The notes beneath the pieces were generated by a model. That model did no database searches and was not told the origin of the DNA. It saw only the letters and a list, made by a program, of their open reading frames with translations. From Nitrospirota bacterium (lineage in GTDB: Bacteria; Nitrospirota; UBA9217): 64,000 nucleotides of DNA. Position 1 is the stretch's first letter. Every line of letters starts with the position of its first letter. The position numbers and the translations under genes were made by a program. Below, piece by piece: positions 25,047 through 57,577 of this stretch. The DNA lies in the NCBI GenBank assembly GCA_035516175.1, contig DATJAO010000060.1, positions 32,779-96,778 of the forward strand. Direction: 5' to 3'.

Positions 25047-26264
25047 CTACGCCGCCTTGTCCATCTCAAAGGTCTCGTGGAGCACTCTGACAGCGAGCTC
25101 CGTGTACTTGGCATCAATCACGCAGGAGATCTTGATCTCTGACGTGCTGATCATCATGATATTGATCCCTTCCTTGGCCAGAGAAGAGAACATCTTAGCA
25201 GCAACGCCAGAATGCGAGCGCATACCCACCCCGATGATCGATACTTTGGCGATATCTTCCTTGAGGTTTACGCCCTGGGCGTCGATCTCGGCCACGACCT
25301 TCTTCATGACCTCCATGATCTTCTTTGAGTCGGTCTTGGGCACGGTAAAGGACATATCCGTAAGTCCGCCTTCGCCGATGTTCTGGATGATCATGTCAAC
25401 GATAATATTGTTGTCGGCGATCTCATTGAATATCCTTCCCGCCACACCCGGTTTGTCCGGCACGCCCGTAACCGTCACCTTTACCTGGTTCTTATCGTAT
25501 GCCACGCCGGACACTACCACTTTCTCCATGTCAGAATCCTCCTTGGTCACGAGGGTCCCGGGGTTATCATTGAAACTCGAGAGCACTCTCACCGGAACAT
25601 TGTATTTTTTAGCGAACTCGACGGAGCGGGTCTGAAGCACCTTGGCACCAAGGCTCGCCATCTCGAGCATTTCCTCGTAGGATATCTTGTCAAGTTTTCT
25701 AGCCTGCGGCACCATGTTCGGGTCCGTGGTATACACACCGTCCACATCTGTATAGATATCGCAAAAATCAGCCTTAAGCGCCGCCGCGACCGCCACGGCC
25801 GTGAGGTCAGAACCGCCGCGGCCGAGCGTCGTCACATCGGACTGCTCGTTGATGCCCTGAAAGCCCGCAACCACTGCGATCTTACCCTCCTTGATCGCCT
25901 GCTTGAGCCGTTCGCCCGTGATCTTCTCTATCCGCGCCTTCGTGTGGACGCTGTCCGAAATGATCCCCGCCTGCCGTCCGGTGAACGACTGCGCCTTGTG
26001 CCCGAGCGAATGGATCGCCATGGCCAGGAGCGCAATGGTCACTCGTTCTCCTGTTGACACGAGCATGTCCATCTCTCGAGGATCCGGGTTCTCGGTCACC
26101 TGCGAAGCAAGGTTGATGAGTTTGTCCGTCTCGCCGCTCATGGCCGAGACAACCACTACCACATCGTTGCCTTCCTCTTTCGTGCGGCAGACGCGCCGTG
26201 CCACATGCTTGATACGTTCAGGGTTCCCGACGGAGGTCCCGCCGTATTTCTGTACTATGAGCAC
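25047..26264 (-). CDS. lysC: aspartate kinase
   Basis: [12 protein letters not shown]-terminus, [12 protein letters not shown], two C-terminal ACT domains. GTG start with a GGAGGGAAGAGG RBS. Confidence 0.92.
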
Positions 26265-26410: not shown

Positions 26411-27640
26411 CTACTTCTTCAAGAAATAATCCATCAGCGTATGCCCATCCTCGAACATCAAGGCACCTTCCCGCTCCGCGATGCGCTCGTCGTAGGGCAC
26501 AGGACCGCCTTTGCGCTCCGACCTGTTGTCGTAAATGACGAAGGGTACGGGCTCGTTCGTGTGCGTCCTGATCTCAAGCGGCGTCGGATGGTCCGGGAGC
26601 GCCAGGATACGATACTCATCGAACTGCTTCATCCCGTGAATGATGTTGCCTACGATATACTCATCAAAGTCTTCGATGGCCCTGAGCTTGTTTTTAAGAT
26701 CGCCGGTGTGGCCCGCTTCATCCGGCGCCTCCACATGAACATAAACAATGTCCTTTGTCTTGAGCGCCCAGAGCGCATGCTCGGCCTTGCCAACGTAGTT
26801 CGTATCGATCCAGCCGGTCGCGCCCGGTACGTTGATCACCTCGAACCCAGCATATATGCCGATGCCTTTGGTAAGGTCCACGGCAGAGATCATGGCCCCT
26901 TCGAGGCCGTATTTTTCTTTGAAGGTAGGCATGCTCGGCCTCTTGCCCTGTCCCCAGAGCCAGATGCTGTTCGCCGGACGCTTGCCGTTTTCGACCCTGG
27001 CGTTATTGGCTGGATGGTGCAGGAGCAGGTCCGTTGACGCTTCCATCAGGGCATTAAGGACTTCGTCTCCTTCTCCTCGCGGAAGGTAGTCCTGAATATC
27101 CTTGTCCTGGATATCGTGTGGCGGCGTGCAATCGACCTTGTCCTTGCCCCCTTTCCAGACCATGAGGTGGCGGTAGCTCACGCCGGTATAGAAACGGATA
27201 CGGTCGCTACCAAGCTTACTATCAATCTCTTCGATGAGCAGGCGGGCATCCTGAGTGGGGATATGGCCTGCGCTGAAATCTTCCATGATCGCACGCCGCG
27301 CCGTGCCCGAGGCTGAGGATTTTCCACCGACGATGCGAAGCGTCACCAGATTACAGCGAAAGGCAACGTCATCAGGCCCCAGGTTGACGCCGATGCTCGC
27401 GGCTTCGAGGGGTGAGCGACCAGTATAGTATTTCCTCGGGTCATACCCCATGACCGTAAGGTTGGCAACGTCACTGCCCGGTGGAAACCCTTCCGGAATT
27501 GTGTGCACCATCCCTACCTTCCCGAGGGTCGCGAGCCGGTCGAGGTTCGGCGTTTTCGCCGCCTGCAGGCAGGTCTTGCCCCCGAGCTCTGCATGCGGCC
27601 TGTCAGCCATTCCATCACCGAGTAATATTATATATTTCAT
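26411..27640 (-). CDS. ApgM-type cofactor-independent phosphoglycerate mutase homologue (proposed alternative homoserine kinase)
   Basis: MKYIILLGDGMADRP N-terminus and metalloenzyme (alkaline-phosphatase superfamily) fold. Located between lysC and the thrC-like gene. Confidence 0.85.
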   Translation of the reverse strand: MKYIILLGDGMADRPHAELGGKTCLQAAKTPNLDRLATLGKVGMVHTIPEGFPPGSDVANLTVMGYDPRKYYTGRSPLEAASIGVNLGPDDVAFRCNLVTLRIVGGKSSASGTARRAIMEDFSAGHIPTQDARLLIEEIDSKLGSDRIRFYTGVSYRHLMVWKGGKDKVDCTPPHDIQDKDIQDYLPRGEGDEVLNALMEASTDLLLHHPANNARVENGKRPANSIWLWGQGKRPSMPTFKEKYGLEGAMISAVDLTKGIGIYAGFEVINVPGATGWIDTNYVGKAEHALWALKTKDIVYVHVEAPDEAGHTGDLKNKLRAIEDFDEYIVGNIIHGMKQFDEYRILALPDHPTPLEIRTHTNEPVPFVIYDNRSERKGGPVPYDERIAEREGALMFEDGHTLMDYFLKK

Positions 27641-27781: not shown

Positions 27782-28024
27782 TTATGAACTGACAACATCA
27801 CCTTCAACGGCTTCTACCTTTACGCCGCGCTCTTTGAGATACTTGATGCCTTCCTCGAGTTTTTTTTCCGCGCCTTCAAGTTCAAGAACTACCTCACCCA
27901 CGCTTTCAGTAACTTTGGCGCGGCGGATATTCGGCATTACATCGAACTTCCTCGCCATGGTGAAGATCACCGGTTCCTTGATCAGTTCCTGCGGGAAAGT
28001 AAGCTTAACCCTCTTCGTTGCCAT
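27782..28024 (-). CDS. NIL-domain protein (stand-alone)
   Basis: 80 aa from ATG 28024 with a GAAGGAGG RBS. KRVKLTFPQELIKEPVIFTMARKFDVMPNIRRAKV...VVLELEG matches the NIL/MetN C-terminal domain pattern. Confidence 0.65.
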   Translation of the reverse strand: MATKRVKLTFPQELIKEPVIFTMARKFDVMPNIRRAKVTESVGEVVLELEGAEKKLEEGIKYLKERGVKVEAVEGDVVSS

Positions 28025-28133
28025 GTTGCCTCCTTCTATTATTACTGCAGAGGTTGCAGGTGGCACAGTAATCATAACCTTGAATTTTGAAAGATCCGCA
28101 CTGCATTATCAACTTTCTCTCTGGTAAAAGTCT

Positions 28134-28412
28134 TTACTGTGTCCCACCAGCAATTGCAGGTACGATCGAGACATTATCGCCATCCTTCAGAGTGGTCTCT
28201 TCCTTGTTCACAAAGCGGATGTCCTCTTCGTTCACATAAATATTGATGAACCGTCGGATCTTACCGCCATCCGATAGCCGCTCCTTCATGCCCGGATAGT
28301 CCTTCTCCAGGGCGTCGACAAGCTCCACGATGTTCCTCGCGCTGCACTCCACATCTGCTCTGCCGTTCGTGAGCTTCTGCAAGGGAGTTGGTATTCTCAC
28401 TTTAATCGCCAT
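28134..28412 (-). CDS. MoaD/ThiS-family sulfur-carrier protein with masked C-terminus (...AGG-TQ)
   Basis: 92 aa from ATG 28412 with an AGGAGG RBS. Beta-grasp pattern. Ends DGDNVSIVPAIAGGTQ*. Confidence 0.75.
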   Translation of the reverse strand: MAIKVRIPTPLQKLTNGRADVECSARNIVELVDALEKDYPGMKERLSDGGKIRRFINIYVNEEDIRFVNKEETTLKDGDNVSIVPAIAGGTQ

Positions 28413-28522
28413 GTCTTTCCTCCTGAAAATGCGATTCACCTGAAATTGCTCCGATAGACACCCTAAGACAAAGAAGAACAGATTTTGCATTTCTTCGTGT
28501 CCGCTGTGGCTCTGTATCTAAA

Positions 28523-29755
28523 TCAACTGATTTGCTTCAGCAGTTTCTCGAAAGAGTCGATGTTCGGCTTGATCGGAGTCGGTCGTTTGAGATGGTCAGT
28601 GACTGCCTCGGTAGTCTTAAGTCCGTTGCCGGTGATGCAGATCACAAGTGTCTCGTCCTTCGGTATCCTGCCTGCATCGATGAGTTTTTTGGCCGCCGAT
28701 ACGGTCACACCGCCTGCCGTCTCGGCAAACACGCCTTCTGTTTCGGCAAGAAGCTTGATCGCATCCACGATCTCCTGGTCCGACGAATCCGCGCCGAACC
28801 CGCCCGTATCCCTCGTGACCTTCACCGCATAGTAGCCGTCAGCGGGGTTCCCGATTGCAAGGGACTTGGCTATAGTCTTGGGTTTTACCGGCTTAACGAT
28901 GTCACTCCCCTCCTTGATCGTCGCAGCGATCGGATTGCAGCCTGCGGCCTGCGCCGCGAACATCCTGGTTTTCACCGGCGGAACAAGGCCGATCTGCTCA
29001 AGCTCCTTAAAAGCCTTCCAAATCTTTGTCATGAGCGAGCCGCTGGCGTTGGGCACCACAATGTTGCGCGGTGTATTCCACCCAAGCTGCTCGACGATCT
29101 CGAAGCCCATAGACTTCGAGCCCTCACCATAGAACGGCCGGATATTGATGTTCACAAAGGCCCATGGATACTTGTTCGCGACCTCGGAGCAAAGGCGGTT
29201 CACCTCGTCGTAGTTGCCGTCAACCATCACCAGGTTGGGTTGGTAAATGAGCGAATTAATGGTCTTAGAAAGCTCAAGGTCGGACGGAGTAAATATAAAT
29301 CGCCTCATGCCCGCCCGCGCGGCCTGCGCAGCCACGGAGTTGGCAAGGTTGCCTGTCGATGCGCATGCCACAGTATCGAATCCGAACTCCTTTGCCTTCG
29401 TGATAGCCACGGCCACCACCCGGTCTTTGAACGAAAGGGTCGGATGGTTCACGGAGTCATCCTTGAGGTATATCTCCTTCACACCCCATGCCTTGGCCAG
29501 GTTCTGGGCTTTCATGAGCGGAGTAAAACCGGTGTCGAAGCCCGTGGCCGGGTCGCCTTCGATCGGCAGGAGCTCGCGGTAACGCCACATATGGTGCGGC
29601 CTGGACTCGATCTTCTGCTTCGTCATGTCCTTCTTGATCCTCTCGTAATCGTACGTGACTTCGAGCGGCCCGAAACAGAACTCGCATACATAAACGGGGT
29701 CAACCTTGTACTCCCTACCGCACTCTACGCACCGTAACCCCTTTACATACGTCAT
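28523..29755 (-). CDS. thrC: threonine synthase-family PLP enzyme with N-terminal zinc ribbon (ThrC, or a ThrC-like homocysteine synthase)
   Basis: CVECGREY...CEFCFGPLEV zinc ribbon. HPTLSFKDR PLP-lysine motif. Fold-type II PLP enzyme, 410 aa. Confidence 0.85.
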   Translation of the reverse strand: MTYVKGLRCVECGREYKVDPVYVCEFCFGPLEVTYDYERIKKDMTKQKIESRPHHMWRYRELLPIEGDPATGFDTGFTPLMKAQNLAKAWGVKEIYLKDDSVNHPTLSFKDRVVAVAITKAKEFGFDTVACASTGNLANSVAAQAARAGMRRFIFTPSDLELSKTINSLIYQPNLVMVDGNYDEVNRLCSEVANKYPWAFVNINIRPFYGEGSKSMGFEIVEQLGWNTPRNIVVPNASGSLMTKIWKAFKELEQIGLVPPVKTRMFAAQAAGCNPIAATIKEGSDIVKPVKPKTIAKSLAIGNPADGYYAVKVTRDTGGFGADSSDQEIVDAIKLLAETEGVFAETAGGVTVSAAKKLIDAGRIPKDETLVICITGNGLKTTEAVTDHLKRPTPIKPNIDSFEKLLKQIS

Positions 29756-29761
29756 CAGCTA

Positions 29762-30169
29762 TTATTCCTCCGGAATAATGTTCAAGGGGACTTCCGTAAT
29801 TTCCCCTTTAATGATGTTATACCCTTTTGCGACCGGGTTCTGTCTATCCATGAGCGAAACAATCACATATACTGCTTCCGGGTAGTACGCCAAATCTACA
29901 TCGGTTGAGGACGGGAATGCCGGGCCGCCGGGATGCGAATGATAAATGCTAACCAAATCTAATCCAGCTTCCCGCATCTCTCGAATTACCCGGAAGTGCT
30001 CTTTCGAGTCAATTTGATAAAATGTAGGACTCGGCATCTCACTGACGAGCGTATAAACTTTTTGGACCCTGTTATCCCTGCCGACAAGGATCCCGCATGC
30101 TTCATTGGGATACACGCGATCGCAATGCTCGTAGATACTCTGGAGATCGGTCTTTTTGATCGTCAGCAA
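29762..30169 (-). CDS. JAMM/MPN+ metalloprotease (Mec+/HcyD/QbsD-like)
   Basis: NEACGILVG ... YHSHPGGPAFPSSTD is the complete E..HxH..S..D JAMM motif. 135 aa. Confidence 0.85.
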   Translation of the reverse strand: MLTIKKTDLQSIYEHCDRVYPNEACGILVGRDNRVQKVYTLVSEMPSPTFYQIDSKEHFRVIREMREAGLDLVSIYHSHPGGPAFPSSTDVDLAYYPEAVYVIVSLMDRQNPVAKGYNIIKGEITEVPLNIIPEE

Positions 30170-30209
30170 CTGGAAAGATGCCCTCGTCTCTTATCCCTCA
30201 ACAGTGCCT

Positions 30210-31013
30210 TTAATGGCTCATGGAACAGAACTGCTCGTAATCGATCAGCTCTTTTATCGTGGGATGATCACCGCAGACTGGACACTCACGGTTCCGGGGT
30301 ACCTTCACCGTTCGGAAGTTCATGTCGAGCGCATTCCATAAGAGAAGCCTCCCTTTAAGTGGATGCCCGATGCCCAGAATCGCCTTGATCACCTCGGTAG
30401 CCTGGATGGTACCGATCACGCCGGTTACCACCCCCAGGATGCCAGCTTCCTGGCATGACGGCACCATGCCCGGCGGCGGCGGAACCTCGAAGAGGCAGCG
30501 ATAGCACGGCCCTTCACCCGGGAAAATGGTCATTACCTGGCCTTCGAACCGGAACACCGCCGCGCTCACAAGCGTTTTCTTGAGCATGACGCAAGCATCA
30601 TTCACAAGATATCGTGTGGGAAAGTTGTCGCTCCCGTCCACAACAATATCATAATCGCGAATGATCTGCATGATGTTCTTGGAGGTGAGCCGTTCCTTGT
30701 GCGGGACCACCTTAACATCATGGTTCAAGGTCTCGTACGTCTGCTTTGCCGAATCAGCCTTGTCCACCCCGATGCGGCTGGTGTTGTGCGCGATCTGGCG
30801 CTGGAGATTGGACAGCTCAACGCGGTCATTATCGATCACGCCGATCGTGCCCACGCCTGCTGCAGCAAGATAGTATCCCACCGGCGAACCGAGACCGCCC
30901 GCACCAACGAGCACAACCTTGGCGTTCAGTATCTTTTCCTGACCGTCTCCCCCGACCTCGGGGAGCAGGATGTGCCTGCTGTAACGGAGTATCTGGTCTT
31001 CTGTAAATTCCAT
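30210..31013 (-). CDS. moeB: ThiF/MoeB/HesA-family E1-like adenylyltransferase (no rhodanese domain)
   Basis: RYSRHILLPEVGGDGQEKIL, GAGGLGSPVGYYLAAAGVG Rossmann motif, and CYRC...CPVCG zinc site. 267 aa. Confidence 0.88.
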   Translation of the reverse strand: MEFTEDQILRYSRHILLPEVGGDGQEKILNAKVVLVGAGGLGSPVGYYLAAAGVGTIGVIDNDRVELSNLQRQIAHNTSRIGVDKADSAKQTYETLNHDVKVVPHKERLTSKNIMQIIRDYDIVVDGSDNFPTRYLVNDACVMLKKTLVSAAVFRFEGQVMTIFPGEGPCYRCLFEVPPPPGMVPSCQEAGILGVVTGVIGTIQATEVIKAILGIGHPLKGRLLLWNALDMNFRTVKVPRNRECPVCGDHPTIKELIDYEQFCSMSH

Positions 31014-31082
31014 TGTTAAACCGCCATACGTTGATCGACGTTAATCGTGAGAAAAAAATCTTTTTGATCAGATTCCCACGTC

Positions 31083-31349
31083 TTACGTTTCACGTTTTTT
31101 CTTTTCCCTGTCTTTCCTGACAAAGATATGCCACTCTTTTTCGGTCGTTTGCTCAATCTTCAAAACCCTCTGTCCCTCGTTCTCCATGCTCTTCGGAACA
31201 TTTTCCGACGCAGGTCTGTGATCTGTGATGATCTCAAGCACCTCGCCGAGGTTCATTTTCTCAATTGCCAGCTTCGAGCGGACGAAGGTATAGGGGCAGA
31301 CTTGACCTTTTATATCCAGTGTCTTATCAACCTTGAATTCGTCGGCCAT
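31083..31349 (-). CDS. TusA/SirA-like sulfurtransferase
   Basis: LDIKGQVCPYTFVRSKLAIEKM (CPxP-type active-site Cys). Start taken at ATG 31349, 5 nt after GGAGG. 88 aa with a Lys-rich tail. Confidence 0.7.
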   Translation of the reverse strand: MADEFKVDKTLDIKGQVCPYTFVRSKLAIEKMNLGEVLEIITDHRPASENVPKSMENEGQRVLKIEQTTEKEWHIFVRKDREKKKRET

Positions 31350-31426
31350 CATTACCTCCATTGCGTATTTCGGATTGCTGATTTTCGTTTGCCATTCCGC
31401 ATCCCGTAATCGACAAACCGGGATTC

Positions 31427-32743
31427 TTACCCCTGTCTCCCCTCCTCCACTCTGATCACCATCGTCGGTCCGGCAACGCAATCCATCTTATTTATTTCGT
31501 CGAGGGCACTGCGAACGTCCCGCTCAACCGCTTCGTGCGTCATCATCACGACCGGCACGGCCTCGGCAGCCTTCCGCCCCTTTTGAATCACGGAAGAGAT
31601 ACTGATATTATTCTTGCCGAGAACCCCTGAGATGCGAGACATCACGCCCGGTCTGTCGATCGCCGAGAACCGGAGATAATAGCATGACGTGATATCATCC
31701 ATCTTCCTGATCTTGAGCGTTGAACGCTCCCGGAATGCCGCCACCGGTGACCGGTTGGCGCAGCCGGACAGGATGTCCCTCCCGATGTCCATGATATCGC
31801 TCACCACGGCGCTTCCGGTCGGCATATCTCCCGCTCCCCTCCCGTAAAACATCGTCGATCCGACGGCGTCACCGACAACCGAGAGGGCATTGTAAACACC
31901 ATCCACTGTAGCGATGGGGTACTCCTCAGGAAGCATCGTCGGGTGCACCCGCGCCTCGATCTCGCCGTCCACCATCTTGGTAATTGCCAGGAGCTTAATT
32001 TTATACCCGAGATCCTTGGCGAAATCGATGTCCAGCGGCAAGATCTTGGAGATGCCTTCTGTGTAGATATCCTCGAACTTCACCGGTGTTCCGTATGTGA
32101 GCATCGTAAGGATCGCGAGCTTATGTGCGGAGTCGATCCCCTCGATATCGAACGTAGGGTCCGCTTCGGCGTAGCCCATTGCCTGCGCCTCTTTCAGAAC
32201 TTCCTCAAACTTTCTTCCAGCGTTCGTCATGAGCGTCAGGATATAGTTGCAGGTGCCATTCACGATCCCGTTGATTGACTTGATATTGTTAGCGGCCAAG
32301 CCGTTCCTGATAGCCGCAAGGATAGGAATGCCTCCTGCCACCGACGCCTCGAATCGGAGCGACTTCCCTGATTTTTCCGCGGCGGCATAGATCTCCTCAC
32401 CGTGCACTGCCAGGAGAGCCTTGTTTGCGGTCACTACGTGTTTCTTGTTCCTGATCGCCTCCAGGATGAATTCTTTTGCAGGTTTGTACCCGCCTATGAG
32501 TTCAACCACGATGTCGATCTCCGGATCGGCCAGGACTTCCTGTGCCTTGGTCGTAAGCTGGACACCTTTGAGCGAAATGCCTCTATCACGTTTGATATCC
32601 AGATCGGATATCTTCTTGAGCATTACCTCCGAGCCAAGCCTTCTCCGAATGATTTCAGCATTCTCTATGAGAATACGGGCAGTGCCGGCTCCTACTGTGC
32701 CGAAGCCGATGATACCTACAGTGATCGGTTTTCTTGATGTCAT
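31427..32743 (-). CDS. hom: homoserine dehydrogenase
   Basis: VGIIGFGTVGAG NAD(P) site, catalytic domain and C-terminal ACT domain. Confidence 0.92.
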   Translation of the reverse strand: MTSRKPITVGIIGFGTVGAGTARILIENAEIIRRRLGSEVMLKKISDLDIKRDRGISLKGVQLTTKAQEVLADPEIDIVVELIGGYKPAKEFILEAIRNKKHVVTANKALLAVHGEEIYAAAEKSGKSLRFEASVAGGIPILAAIRNGLAANNIKSINGIVNGTCNYILTLMTNAGRKFEEVLKEAQAMGYAEADPTFDIEGIDSAHKLAILTMLTYGTPVKFEDIYTEGISKILPLDIDFAKDLGYKIKLLAITKMVDGEIEARVHPTMLPEEYPIATVDGVYNALSVVGDAVGSTMFYGRGAGDMPTGSAVVSDIMDIGRDILSGCANRSPVAAFRERSTLKIRKMDDITSCYYLRFSAIDRPGVMSRISGVLGKNNISISSVIQKGRKAAEAVPVVMMTHEAVERDVRSALDEINKMDCVAGPTMVIRVEEGRQG

Positions 32744-32839
32744 ATCTCTCTGCCCTCTTAACGGTCATGGGGCAACGTGCCGGGTCCAAAGGTGGATTCT
32801 ATCGCATTCCCTGGCCCCCCTGCTACTCGACCCTTGGCC

Positions 32840-57091: not shown

Positions 57092-57295
57092 TCAGGATCC
57101 TCCCTGCATGAAGCTCACTACTTCGAGGTTGTCGTCCTCTTTTATTGCGGTCGTGCCGAATTTGTCCTTTTTTACGATTTCAAGGTTCAACTCAACAGCC
57201 ACGCGTTCCTGCTGAACCTTTAAAAACTCGAGCAAACCTTGGACTGTTATGCCGTCGGGTACTGTTTTTTTCTCTCCGTTGCATGTGATCATCAT
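57092..57295 (-). CDS. thiS: ThiS sulfur-carrier protein with one extra residue after the Gly-Gly (…MQGG-S)
   Basis: 67 aa, MMITCNGEKKTVPDGITVQGLLEFL... First gene after the TPP riboswitch. The C-terminal codons were read directly: ATG CAG GGA GGA TCC TGA. Confidence 0.8.
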   Translation of the reverse strand: MMITCNGEKKTVPDGITVQGLLEFLKVQQERVAVELNLEIVKKDKFGTTAIKEDDNLEVVSFMQGGS

Positions 57296-57447: not shown

Positions 57448-57469
57448 GAGAAGGGTTATATGAAGCTGT

Positions 57470-57565
57470 GAATGTTCGCCTTCCCTACGCCGGCACTACC
57501 CGGATCAGGTTCTAAGGGTCGCCCTCGAAAAAAGAGGACTCTCAGCCGATCGGCTCCCCCAGCTC
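57470..57565 (-). promoter_or_regulatory. TPP (THI-box) riboswitch
   Basis: The minus strand reads GGGGGAGCCGAUCGGCUGAGAGUCC...GCGACCCUUAGAACCUGAUCCGGGUAGUGCCGGCGUAGGGAAGGCG. This contains the conserved CUGAGA, ACCCUU.GAACCUGAUC.GG.UA.UGCC.GCGUAGGGAA elements. Confidence 0.85.
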
Positions 57566-57577
57566 TCTATGATCTCC

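Follow-up and report, generated by a model that had tools for sequence, protein, structure and literature searches.

A predicted MetM/MetO-type homocysteine route within an aspartate-family operon of a Nitrospirota bacterium, and a carrier-NIL cassette that outlasts MetM in its relatives

This study concerns a stretch of 64,000 nucleotides (positions 32,779 to 96,778 of contig DATJAO010000060.1, GenBank assembly GCA_035516175.1; hereafter the window) from a Nitrospirota bacterium (GTDB lineage UBA9217), in which six consecutive genes on the minus strand encode a NIL-domain protein, a ubiquitin-like sulfur carrier, a pyridoxal 5'-phosphate (PLP) enzyme of the ThrC family, a JAMM metalloprotease, an E1 adenylyltransferase and a TusA-family protein. 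Homology and gene context indicate that this block is probably a homocysteine route of the MetM/MetO type placed within an aspartate-family operon, and that its "threonine synthase" of 410 amino acids (aa) is, by phylogeny, not a threonine synthase. The most interesting new point is that in relatives of this bacterium the cassette of carrier and NIL protein outlasts the MetM-like enzyme. The preliminary description of this DNA, made from the sequence alone, had reported the six genes with these domains, and all six are indeed present, each encoded protein scoring above the Pfam gathering score:

27782..28024, minus strand: NIL-domain protein of 80 aa, without cysteine (Pfam NIL, 68.2 bits)
28134..28412, minus strand: MetO-like sulfur carrier, a ThiS/MoaD beta-grasp protein of the CysO type ending in PAIAGG-TQ (Pfam ThiS, 61 bits)
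28523..29755, minus strand: MetM-like PLP enzyme of the ThrC family, 410 aa (Pfam PALP, 221.6 bits, with a zinc-ribbon match)
29762..30169, minus strand: JAMM/MPN+ metalloprotease, Mec/HcyD-like (Pfam Prok-JAB, 94.6 bits)
30210..31013, minus strand: E1 adenylyltransferase of the MoeB/ThiF type, 267 aa (Pfam ThiF, 283.1 bits)
31083..31361, minus strand: TusA-family sulfurtransferase, with the Cys in GQVCPYTF (Pfam TusA, 77 bits)

The 410-aa enzyme has an N-terminal CxxC...CxxC ribbon and its PLP lysine, K110, lies within SFKDR. In a tree of 99 sequences, which included four bacterial ThrCs from the PDB and with which an enlarged tree agrees, it forms one clade with 82 homologues (Shimodaira-Hasegawa-like approximate likelihood ratio test (SH-aLRT) 99; 83-84 sequences across both trees). 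The ThrCs of Aquifex, Thermus, M. tuberculosis and B. subtilis cluster outside this clade with the canonical ThrCs of relatives, and the window enzyme thus does not group with proven threonine synthases. Its scores against the ThrCs of the PDB do not exceed 194 bits, whereas the canonical ThrC of one Nitrospirota relative (locus L010) reaches 527 bits to Aquifex ThrC. The enzyme is 36-37% identical to the solved bacterial ThrCs (26-37% if the plant enzyme is included), compared with 56-57% to cyanobacterial and actinobacterial clade members that adjoin carriers. In Thermus numbering, at least 99% of the members of the MetM-like clade depart from ThrC at eleven positions that at least 90% of the compared ThrCs conserve (G64V, M65V, T88L, F134Y, S155N, N157R, R160Y, G187A, A194K, A240S and S248D), and the window enzyme itself carries V, V, L, N, R and Y at G64, M65, T88, S155, N157 and R160. 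T88, S155 and R160 presumably line the phosphate pocket that sets the reaction specificity of ThrC.

The genome of the window (2.49 Mb in 73 contigs, 86% complete) encodes two proteins above the cut-off of TIGR00260 (thrC), so that the window enzyme is not its sole thrC homologue. The other, on contig C23, is a plant-type ThrC of 472 aa, which scores 559.6 bits to Arabidopsis chloroplast threonine synthase 1 and pairs with it in the tree (SH-aLRT 100). A zinc-ribbon PALP paralogue on contig C62 (~65800-67000) was considered as a second MetM and ruled out, since its score with TIGR03844 (463 bits; cut-off 325) marks it as a cysteate synthase. A gene of the CysK/M type is present on contig C61.

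The carrier gene lies 110 bp downstream of the enzyme gene, and the best PDB matches of its product are of the CysO type (4n6e_B, 78.5 bits; M. tuberculosis CysO, 3dwg_C, 72.5 bits). We compared the loci of 80 species representatives from at least 12 named phyla, whose enzymes are 53-65% identical to that of the window; 77 of these offered enough downstream sequence for carriers to be counted. A carrier ending in SIVPAIAGG, an end that is kept across phyla, follows the enzyme in 70 of the 77. The gene neighbourhood to which the preliminary description had pointed is conserved: the same order recurs in relatives, and as the enzyme-carrier pair is also found in these loci of other species, the arrangement is not due to chance. 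In three Nitrospirota loci (L010, L012 and L018) the genes for enzyme, carrier and NIL protein are followed at once by those for a canonical ThrC (362-364 aa), HomK and LysC, so that two ThrC paralogues are encoded side by side. The clade also includes a member from the actinomycete Nonomuraea gerenzanensis (51% identical), with an S-adenosylmethionine (SAM) riboswitch upstream (68.7 bits) and a 91-aa carrier ending in Gly-Gly downstream, to which the window carrier is 45% identical; the layout of SAM riboswitch, enzyme and carrier has been reported for metM of Streptomyces albulus. This Nonomuraea gene served as the actinomycete anchor of the clade; a homology search seeded with a homologue from an actinobacterial MAG yielded only metagenome proteins of the Acidimicrobiia type. 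Of 17 other loci sampled, 7 have a SAM riboswitch ahead of the enzyme gene, and at least four named phyla are represented among these 7, including Actinomycetota, Chloroflexota, Verrucomicrobiota and Planctomycetota; none was found upstream of the enzyme in the five cyanobacterial and two Nitrospirota loci sampled.

The surroundings of the pair vary between phyla. In seven loci of Nitrospira/Nitrospiraceae (L036, L039, L042, L048, L056, L060 and L083) the order is CysK/M-like gene, E1, MetM-like gene, carrier, NIL, second E1 and JAMM. The flanking of one carrier by a CysK/M-like gene and two E1s suggests that it may serve both cysteine and homocysteine synthesis. Eight cyanobacterial loci (L054, L072, L073, L078, L085, L088, L089 and L093) possess an extra ThiS/MoaD-like gene upstream of the MetM-like gene, besides the carrier downstream, and have no NIL, E1 or JAMM gene nearby. 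In the window itself a further ThiS-family gene, separate from the carrier of the module, is located at ~57098-57283 on the minus strand, just downstream of the sole riboswitch detected in the window, a thiamine pyrophosphate (TPP) riboswitch (57464-57570, 70.6 bits); the whole genome holds four ThiS-family genes.

The distribution of the enzyme among 121 Nitrospirota genomes is consistent with a role in homocysteine synthesis. A MetM-like gene (at least 57% identity) was found in 90 of them and DUF39 in 10, all without MetM and nine from one family; these two groups and a third, consisting of 16 MetM-less genomes of the window's own family with a plant-type cystathionine gamma-synthase (CGS), comprise 116 of the 121 genomes. 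Such a near-exclusive pattern of MetM, DUF39 and CGS is what would be expected if the MetM-like enzyme is a homocysteine synthase. In the window's own, 86%-complete genome no DUF39/HcyBio, MetX or MetA/HTS was found; a plant-type CGS is present and may provide a second route.

The module is flanked by hom upstream and by the genes of an ApgM-like kinase, lysC and cimA downstream, as had been stated in the preliminary description; an aminotransferase gene also lies upstream. Three of these are as follows:

31427..32743, minus strand: homoserine dehydrogenase, hom (NF004976, 556.8 bits)
26411..27640, minus strand: homoserine phosphotransferase of the HomK type, ApgM-like (TIGR02535 "proposed homoserine kinase", 563.3 bits; cut-off 446.3)
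25047..26264, minus strand: aspartate kinase, lysC, co-directional with the cluster (NF005155, 653.6 bits)

The block thus reads alaT-hom-tusA-E1-JAMM-metM-metO-NIL-homK-lysC-cimA, with intergenic gaps of 6-146 bp and clear Shine-Dalgarno sequences at the carrier gene (AGGAGG) and the NIL gene. A scan for promoters and terminators yielded one good sigma-70-like site (34108-34080; 11 of 12 matches) ahead of the aminotransferase gene, although counts were not above those in shuffled sequences; gene spacing and this one promoter-like site hint at a single long operon. HomK of the TIGR02535 family has been shown to complement an E. coli thrB mutant (GapMind 2026, PMC13759103).

In the mechanism that we propose, Hom and HomK would supply O-phosphohomoserine. 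JAMM would strip the Thr-Gln cap off the CysO-like carrier, the short E1 would adenylate the freed Gly-Gly, and a TusA persulfide, or sulfide directly, would convert the adenylate to the carrier thiocarboxylate. The MetM-like PLP enzyme would then catalyze gamma-replacement on O-phosphohomoserine by this thiocarboxylate, after which JAMM would hydrolyse the carrier-homocysteine adduct. Threonine would be made by the separate plant-type threonine synthase encoded on the other contig.

The JAMM gene, separated by 6 bp from the enzyme gene that follows it, encodes the only JAB protein of the genome, in which the motif E...HSHPGGPAFPSSTD (HxHx7Sx2D), as read from the sequence, is intact; the protein is 41% identical to the JAB of the same cluster in a metagenome-assembled genome (MAG) of the Dissulfurispiraceae. 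In the 17 carriers read from the window's family, that of the window included, the Gly-Gly is always capped (among the caps are C, CR, VDNR, RG, I, R, S and TQ). Since the carrier is capped, this single JAMM would be needed at least for trimming and, by analogy with Mec and HcyD, it may also free homocysteine from the carrier adduct. The E1, which had been described as devoid of a rhodanese domain, indeed contains ThiF only (residues 11-246 of 267) and two CxxC pairs; it matches only the N-terminal parts of MoeZ models and scores 302.9 bits with MoeB (PRK05690) and 337.9 bits with the SAMP-activating E1 UbaA. A second E1, 41% identical, is encoded elsewhere in the genome. TusA is kept at the same position in 14 of the 16 loci examined from the same family and in the Dissulfurispiraceae MAG (L012), and is uncommon elsewhere (4 of 83 loci in a strict count). 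We infer that a TusA persulfide, or free sulfide, stands in for the rhodanese persulfide at the carrier adenylate. Two further arrangements were encountered in these loci. In a Nitrospinaceae MAG (L043:12296-13029), TusA (EVCPYTF) is followed by a protein of two tandem NIL domains, ~3 kb downstream of enzyme, carrier and E1, which represents a second, independent adjacency of TusA and NIL. In L012 (4972-7423) the MetM-like gene is separated from JAMM by an insertion of about seven small genes, among them a MazE/PIN toxin-antitoxin pair and genes of the TumE and HVO_A0114 families, which leaves the remainder of the cluster undisturbed.

The preliminary description had suggested that the apparent threonine synthase may be, or may also be, a MetM/MetO-type, carrier-dependent homocysteine synthase fed by the neighbouring kinase, and phylogeny, gene content and neighbourhood support this suggestion. 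A number of points weigh against it. The 64-kb window contains no SAM riboswitch. The absences of genes from an 86%-complete genome are provisional. The link to S. albulus MetM itself (UniProt A0A059WBP2) is transitive, via the Microcystis, cyanobacterial and Nonomuraea members of the clade, and the roles of NIL and TusA are only inferred. Moreover, the window enzyme scores 275.4 bits with TIGR00260 (cut-off 167.1), and a Microcystis "ThrC", a clade member that is encoded beside a MetO-like gene and is reported to be 51.6% identical to S. albulus MetM (B. subtilis ThrC: 33%), was reported to convert O-phosphohomoserine to threonine in vitro and to act there as a threonine deaminase too, with methionine not raised in vivo. 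The window enzyme may therefore be bifunctional. These last observations favor the view that the 410-aa protein makes threonine, as a genuine threonine synthase or as a bifunctional one, and that the adjacent carrier genes serve an unrelated sulfur need, as do the score of 303.1 bits with NF006050 "threonine synthase" (cut-off 303) and the fact that the canonical thrC which in relatives lies between NIL and homK is missing in the window. However, TIGR00260 and NF006050 do not tell MetM from ThrC, the enzyme stands in a clade apart from all proven ThrCs with ThrC-invariant residues replaced, homologues are found under SAM riboswitches, and relatives encode it beside a canonical ThrC just as the window genome has its own plant-type ThrC; we thus regard this view as very unlikely. 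Even less credit can be given to the idea that carrier, E1 and JAMM form a SAMPylation-type system of ubiquitin-like conjugation that regulates the neighbouring amino-acid enzymes. It is prompted by the top NCBIfam names, i.e., SAMP1 (48.1 bits), UbaA and desampylase (75.7 bits), but none of the three reaches its curated cut-off, the nearest structures of the carrier are sulfur carriers of the CysO type, and the close coupling with a PLP enzyme and with SAM riboswitches speaks for biosynthesis. We therefore rejected this reading.

Further evidence that runs counter to the proposed route comes from the window's own family, in which only 5 of 21 genomes possess MetM and 16 do not. All 12 of the MetM-less genomes that were examined have kept the core hom-E1-carrier-NIL-HomK, with LysC and CimA next wherever the contig reaches far enough; TusA was undetected in one of them and JAMM in another. 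In these loci metM is cleanly gone from between JAMM and carrier (gaps of 144-227 bp where measured), the carrier, which still bears a cap, is strongly conserved, and NIL is 62-87% identical to that of the window. With MetM absent from 16 of 21 genomes and the carrier module kept in all 12 examined, the family can evidently do without MetM, and the carrier must serve some other client, for which the plant-type CGS and the CysK/M-type enzyme are candidates. This opens an alternative in which TusA-E1-JAMM-carrier-NIL is a general CysO-type sulfur-delivery unit, the main client of which within the family is the plant-type CGS or a CysM-type cysteine synthase, MetM in the window genome being a redundant and decaying second client. 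Besides the MetM-less genomes and the order hom-(TusA)-E1-(JAMM)-carrier-NIL-HomK, with an always capped Gly-Gly, in 12 of 12, this alternative can draw on the plant-type CGS that lies beside a plant-type ThrC in 20 of the 21 family genomes, on the CysO-like nature of the carrier, on the CysK/M gene beside the module in Nitrospira loci and the CysK/M-type gene in the window genome, and on the analogy with Wolinella HcyS/MetY for the use of O-phosphohomoserine and carrier thiocarboxylate by CGS. Nevertheless, we consider it unlikely, because in the window metM is intact between JAMM and carrier (at the 6 and 110 bp gaps), MetM and carrier are almost inseparable outside the window's family, the window cluster contains no CGS-family or CysM gene, and a plant-type CGS is not known to use a carrier.

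These losses can be accounted for by a simple history. The plant-type ThrC and CGS genes adjoin in 20 of the 21 family genomes, compared with 3 of 100 genomes outside the family; canonical ThrC occurs in none of the 21, and an orthologue of the plant-type CGS (at least 80% identity) is present in each of the 16 MetM-less genomes. In the window genome the plant-type ThrC lies directly upstream of the CGS-family gene (contig C23:29106-31650; locus L002:150-2769). The latter encodes the genome's only PF01053 enzyme, a Cys/Met-metabolism PLP enzyme whose best PDB match is tobacco cystathionine gamma-synthase (368.7 bits). In the window metM is intact, and it shares 76-80% identity with the other copies in the family. 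An ancestor with the order hom-tusA-E1-JAMM-metM-carrier-NIL-thrC-homK, as in L012, would have been followed by the gain of a plant-type pair of threonine synthase (TS) and CGS, and canonical thrC would then have been lost throughout the family and metM in most of its lineages. This is the simplest history, in which the window genome would be an intermediate that still has metM. The displacement of metM together with thrC by a TS+CGS pair in turn supports the functional assignment of MetM.

The NIL protein follows the carrier rather than the enzyme. In 88 of the 90 MetM-bearing Nitrospirota genomes its gene lies no more than 2 kb downstream of that for the enzyme, and it is present in 33 of the 77 loci overall, including those of Verrucomicrobiota, Planctomycetota and Chloroflexota, and in none of 21 cyanobacterial loci near the enzyme. 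In three species (L019, L021 and L040) carrier and NIL form a single polypeptide (...SIIPAIAGG-linker-NIL), in which both the ThiS and NIL Pfam domains score above cut-off, with a JAB gene near each. Because NIL stays with the carrier after the loss of MetM and in some species is fused behind its Gly-Gly, it belongs to the carrier and not to the enzyme. An alignment of the NIL protein with the C2 domain of E. coli MetN, which binds methionine, places N32 of the window protein opposite N295 of MetN, a residue which we take to be required for methionine trans-inhibition. This likeness and the lack of cysteine lead us to read NIL as an adaptor or pro-domain which senses methionine or homocysteine and may modulate the processing or loading of the carrier, which is the weakest part of our interpretation. 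In the literature we found no paper tying NIL to MetM/MetO or to sulfur carriers and, as the preliminary description had supposed, no description of the roles of NIL or TusA in such a pathway. The order of the genes is not the same everywhere: in five Chloroflexota loci (L035, L045, L079, L084 and L091) it is enzyme-NIL-carrier instead of enzyme-carrier-NIL, and in L084 more carrier-like, CysK/M-like, E1 and JAMM genes follow downstream.

A bolder proposal, possible but rather doubtful as a whole, is that TusA-E1-JAMM-carrier-NIL is an autonomous sulfur cassette, that in most members of this family an incoming plant-type pair of TS and CGS displaced both canonical ThrC and MetM, that CGS draws on the carrier thiocarboxylate, and that NIL is a carrier-bound, methionine-sensing pro-domain or partner, made in some lineages as a carrier-GG-NIL precursor, which gates trimming by JAMM or loading by E1. 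If CGS did draw on the carrier, O-phosphohomoserine, a PF01053 enzyme and a sulfur carrier would be combined in a way not described before. The variant series observed here, from MetM with canonical ThrC, through MetM with the plant-type pair in the window genome, to genomes that have only the plant-type pair but still keep the carrier module, represents a concrete case of pathway displacement and poses the question which enzymes a sulfur carrier can serve. The near-obligate NIL of Nitrospirota, together with the carrier fusions found elsewhere, points to an unstudied third component of protein-thiocarboxylate pathways. There is also a consequence for annotation. Since pipelines call the MetM-like enzyme a threonine synthase, predictions of methionine prototrophy go wrong in many uncultured lineages. 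One peptide pattern of the enzyme is matched by at least 599 species representatives, and 90 of the 121 Nitrospirota genomes carry it.

The known system closest to that of the window is the MetM/MetO/Mec/MoeZ pathway of S. albulus, which was reportedly described by Hasebe and co-workers in 2024 (Appl Environ Microbiol). This pathway, consisting of MetO (carrier), Mec (JAMM), MoeZ (E1 sulfur ligase) and MetM, is included in GapMind 2026 (PMC13759103), where it is also noted that MetM is often misannotated as threonine synthase and where a diverged Mec is listed from the Nitrospirota species Dissulfurispira thermophila. The core found here is, therefore, a further instance of a published route. 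As in S. albulus, a ThrC-homologous PLP enzyme is followed by a ThiS/MoaD carrier with Gly-Gly, JAMM and E1 are present and O-phosphohomoserine is the predicted carbon substrate; the actinomycete member of the clade, from Nonomuraea, shares the layout of SAM riboswitch, enzyme and carrier as well. Unlike in S. albulus, the E1 of the window is short, lacks a rhodanese domain and adjoins a TusA gene, the module includes a NIL protein, the Gly-Gly of the carrier is capped by TQ, there is no SAM riboswitch, and all components lie in one block inside the hom-homK operon.

In Wolinella succinogenes, JAMM is said to trim a capped carrier, which is adenylated by E1 and, as thiocarboxylate, yields homocysteine (HcyS/HcyD/HcyF/MetY, reportedly from the work of Krishnamoorthy and Begley); the Wolinella JAMM reportedly also frees the product. 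That system is said to use a PF01053 sulfhydrylase on O-acetylhomoserine, whereas the window has a ThrC-fold enzyme for which O-phosphohomoserine is the predicted substrate, and the only PF01053 enzyme of its genome is encoded on another contig. CysO/CysM/Mec+ of M. tuberculosis makes cysteine from O-phosphoserine with a CysM-fold enzyme; the window shares with it a CysO-like carrier and the same logic of JAMM and E1, but has no CysM gene in the cluster. With the structurally characterized ThrCs (PDB 2zsj, 1uim, 2d1f and 6cgq; 1e5x) the window enzyme has in common the fold, the PLP lysine motif and the predicted substrate O-phosphohomoserine, but it belongs to a separate clade, has a zinc-ribbon N-terminus, and has T88, S155, N157 and R160 replaced. 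The NIL protein resembles both the C2 domain of MetN and the NIL-ferredoxin of the DUF39 route in its fold, in the Asn of its N-I-x motif and in the link with methionine or homocysteine; unlike these, it stands alone, without an ATP-binding cassette (ABC) ATPase, ferredoxin domain or DUF39, and is tied, and sometimes fused, to a ubiquitin-like sulfur carrier. The NIL partner, the short E1 combined with TusA, the placement in a hom-homK operon and the carrier cassette that outlasts MetM are, therefore, what goes beyond the published pathway.

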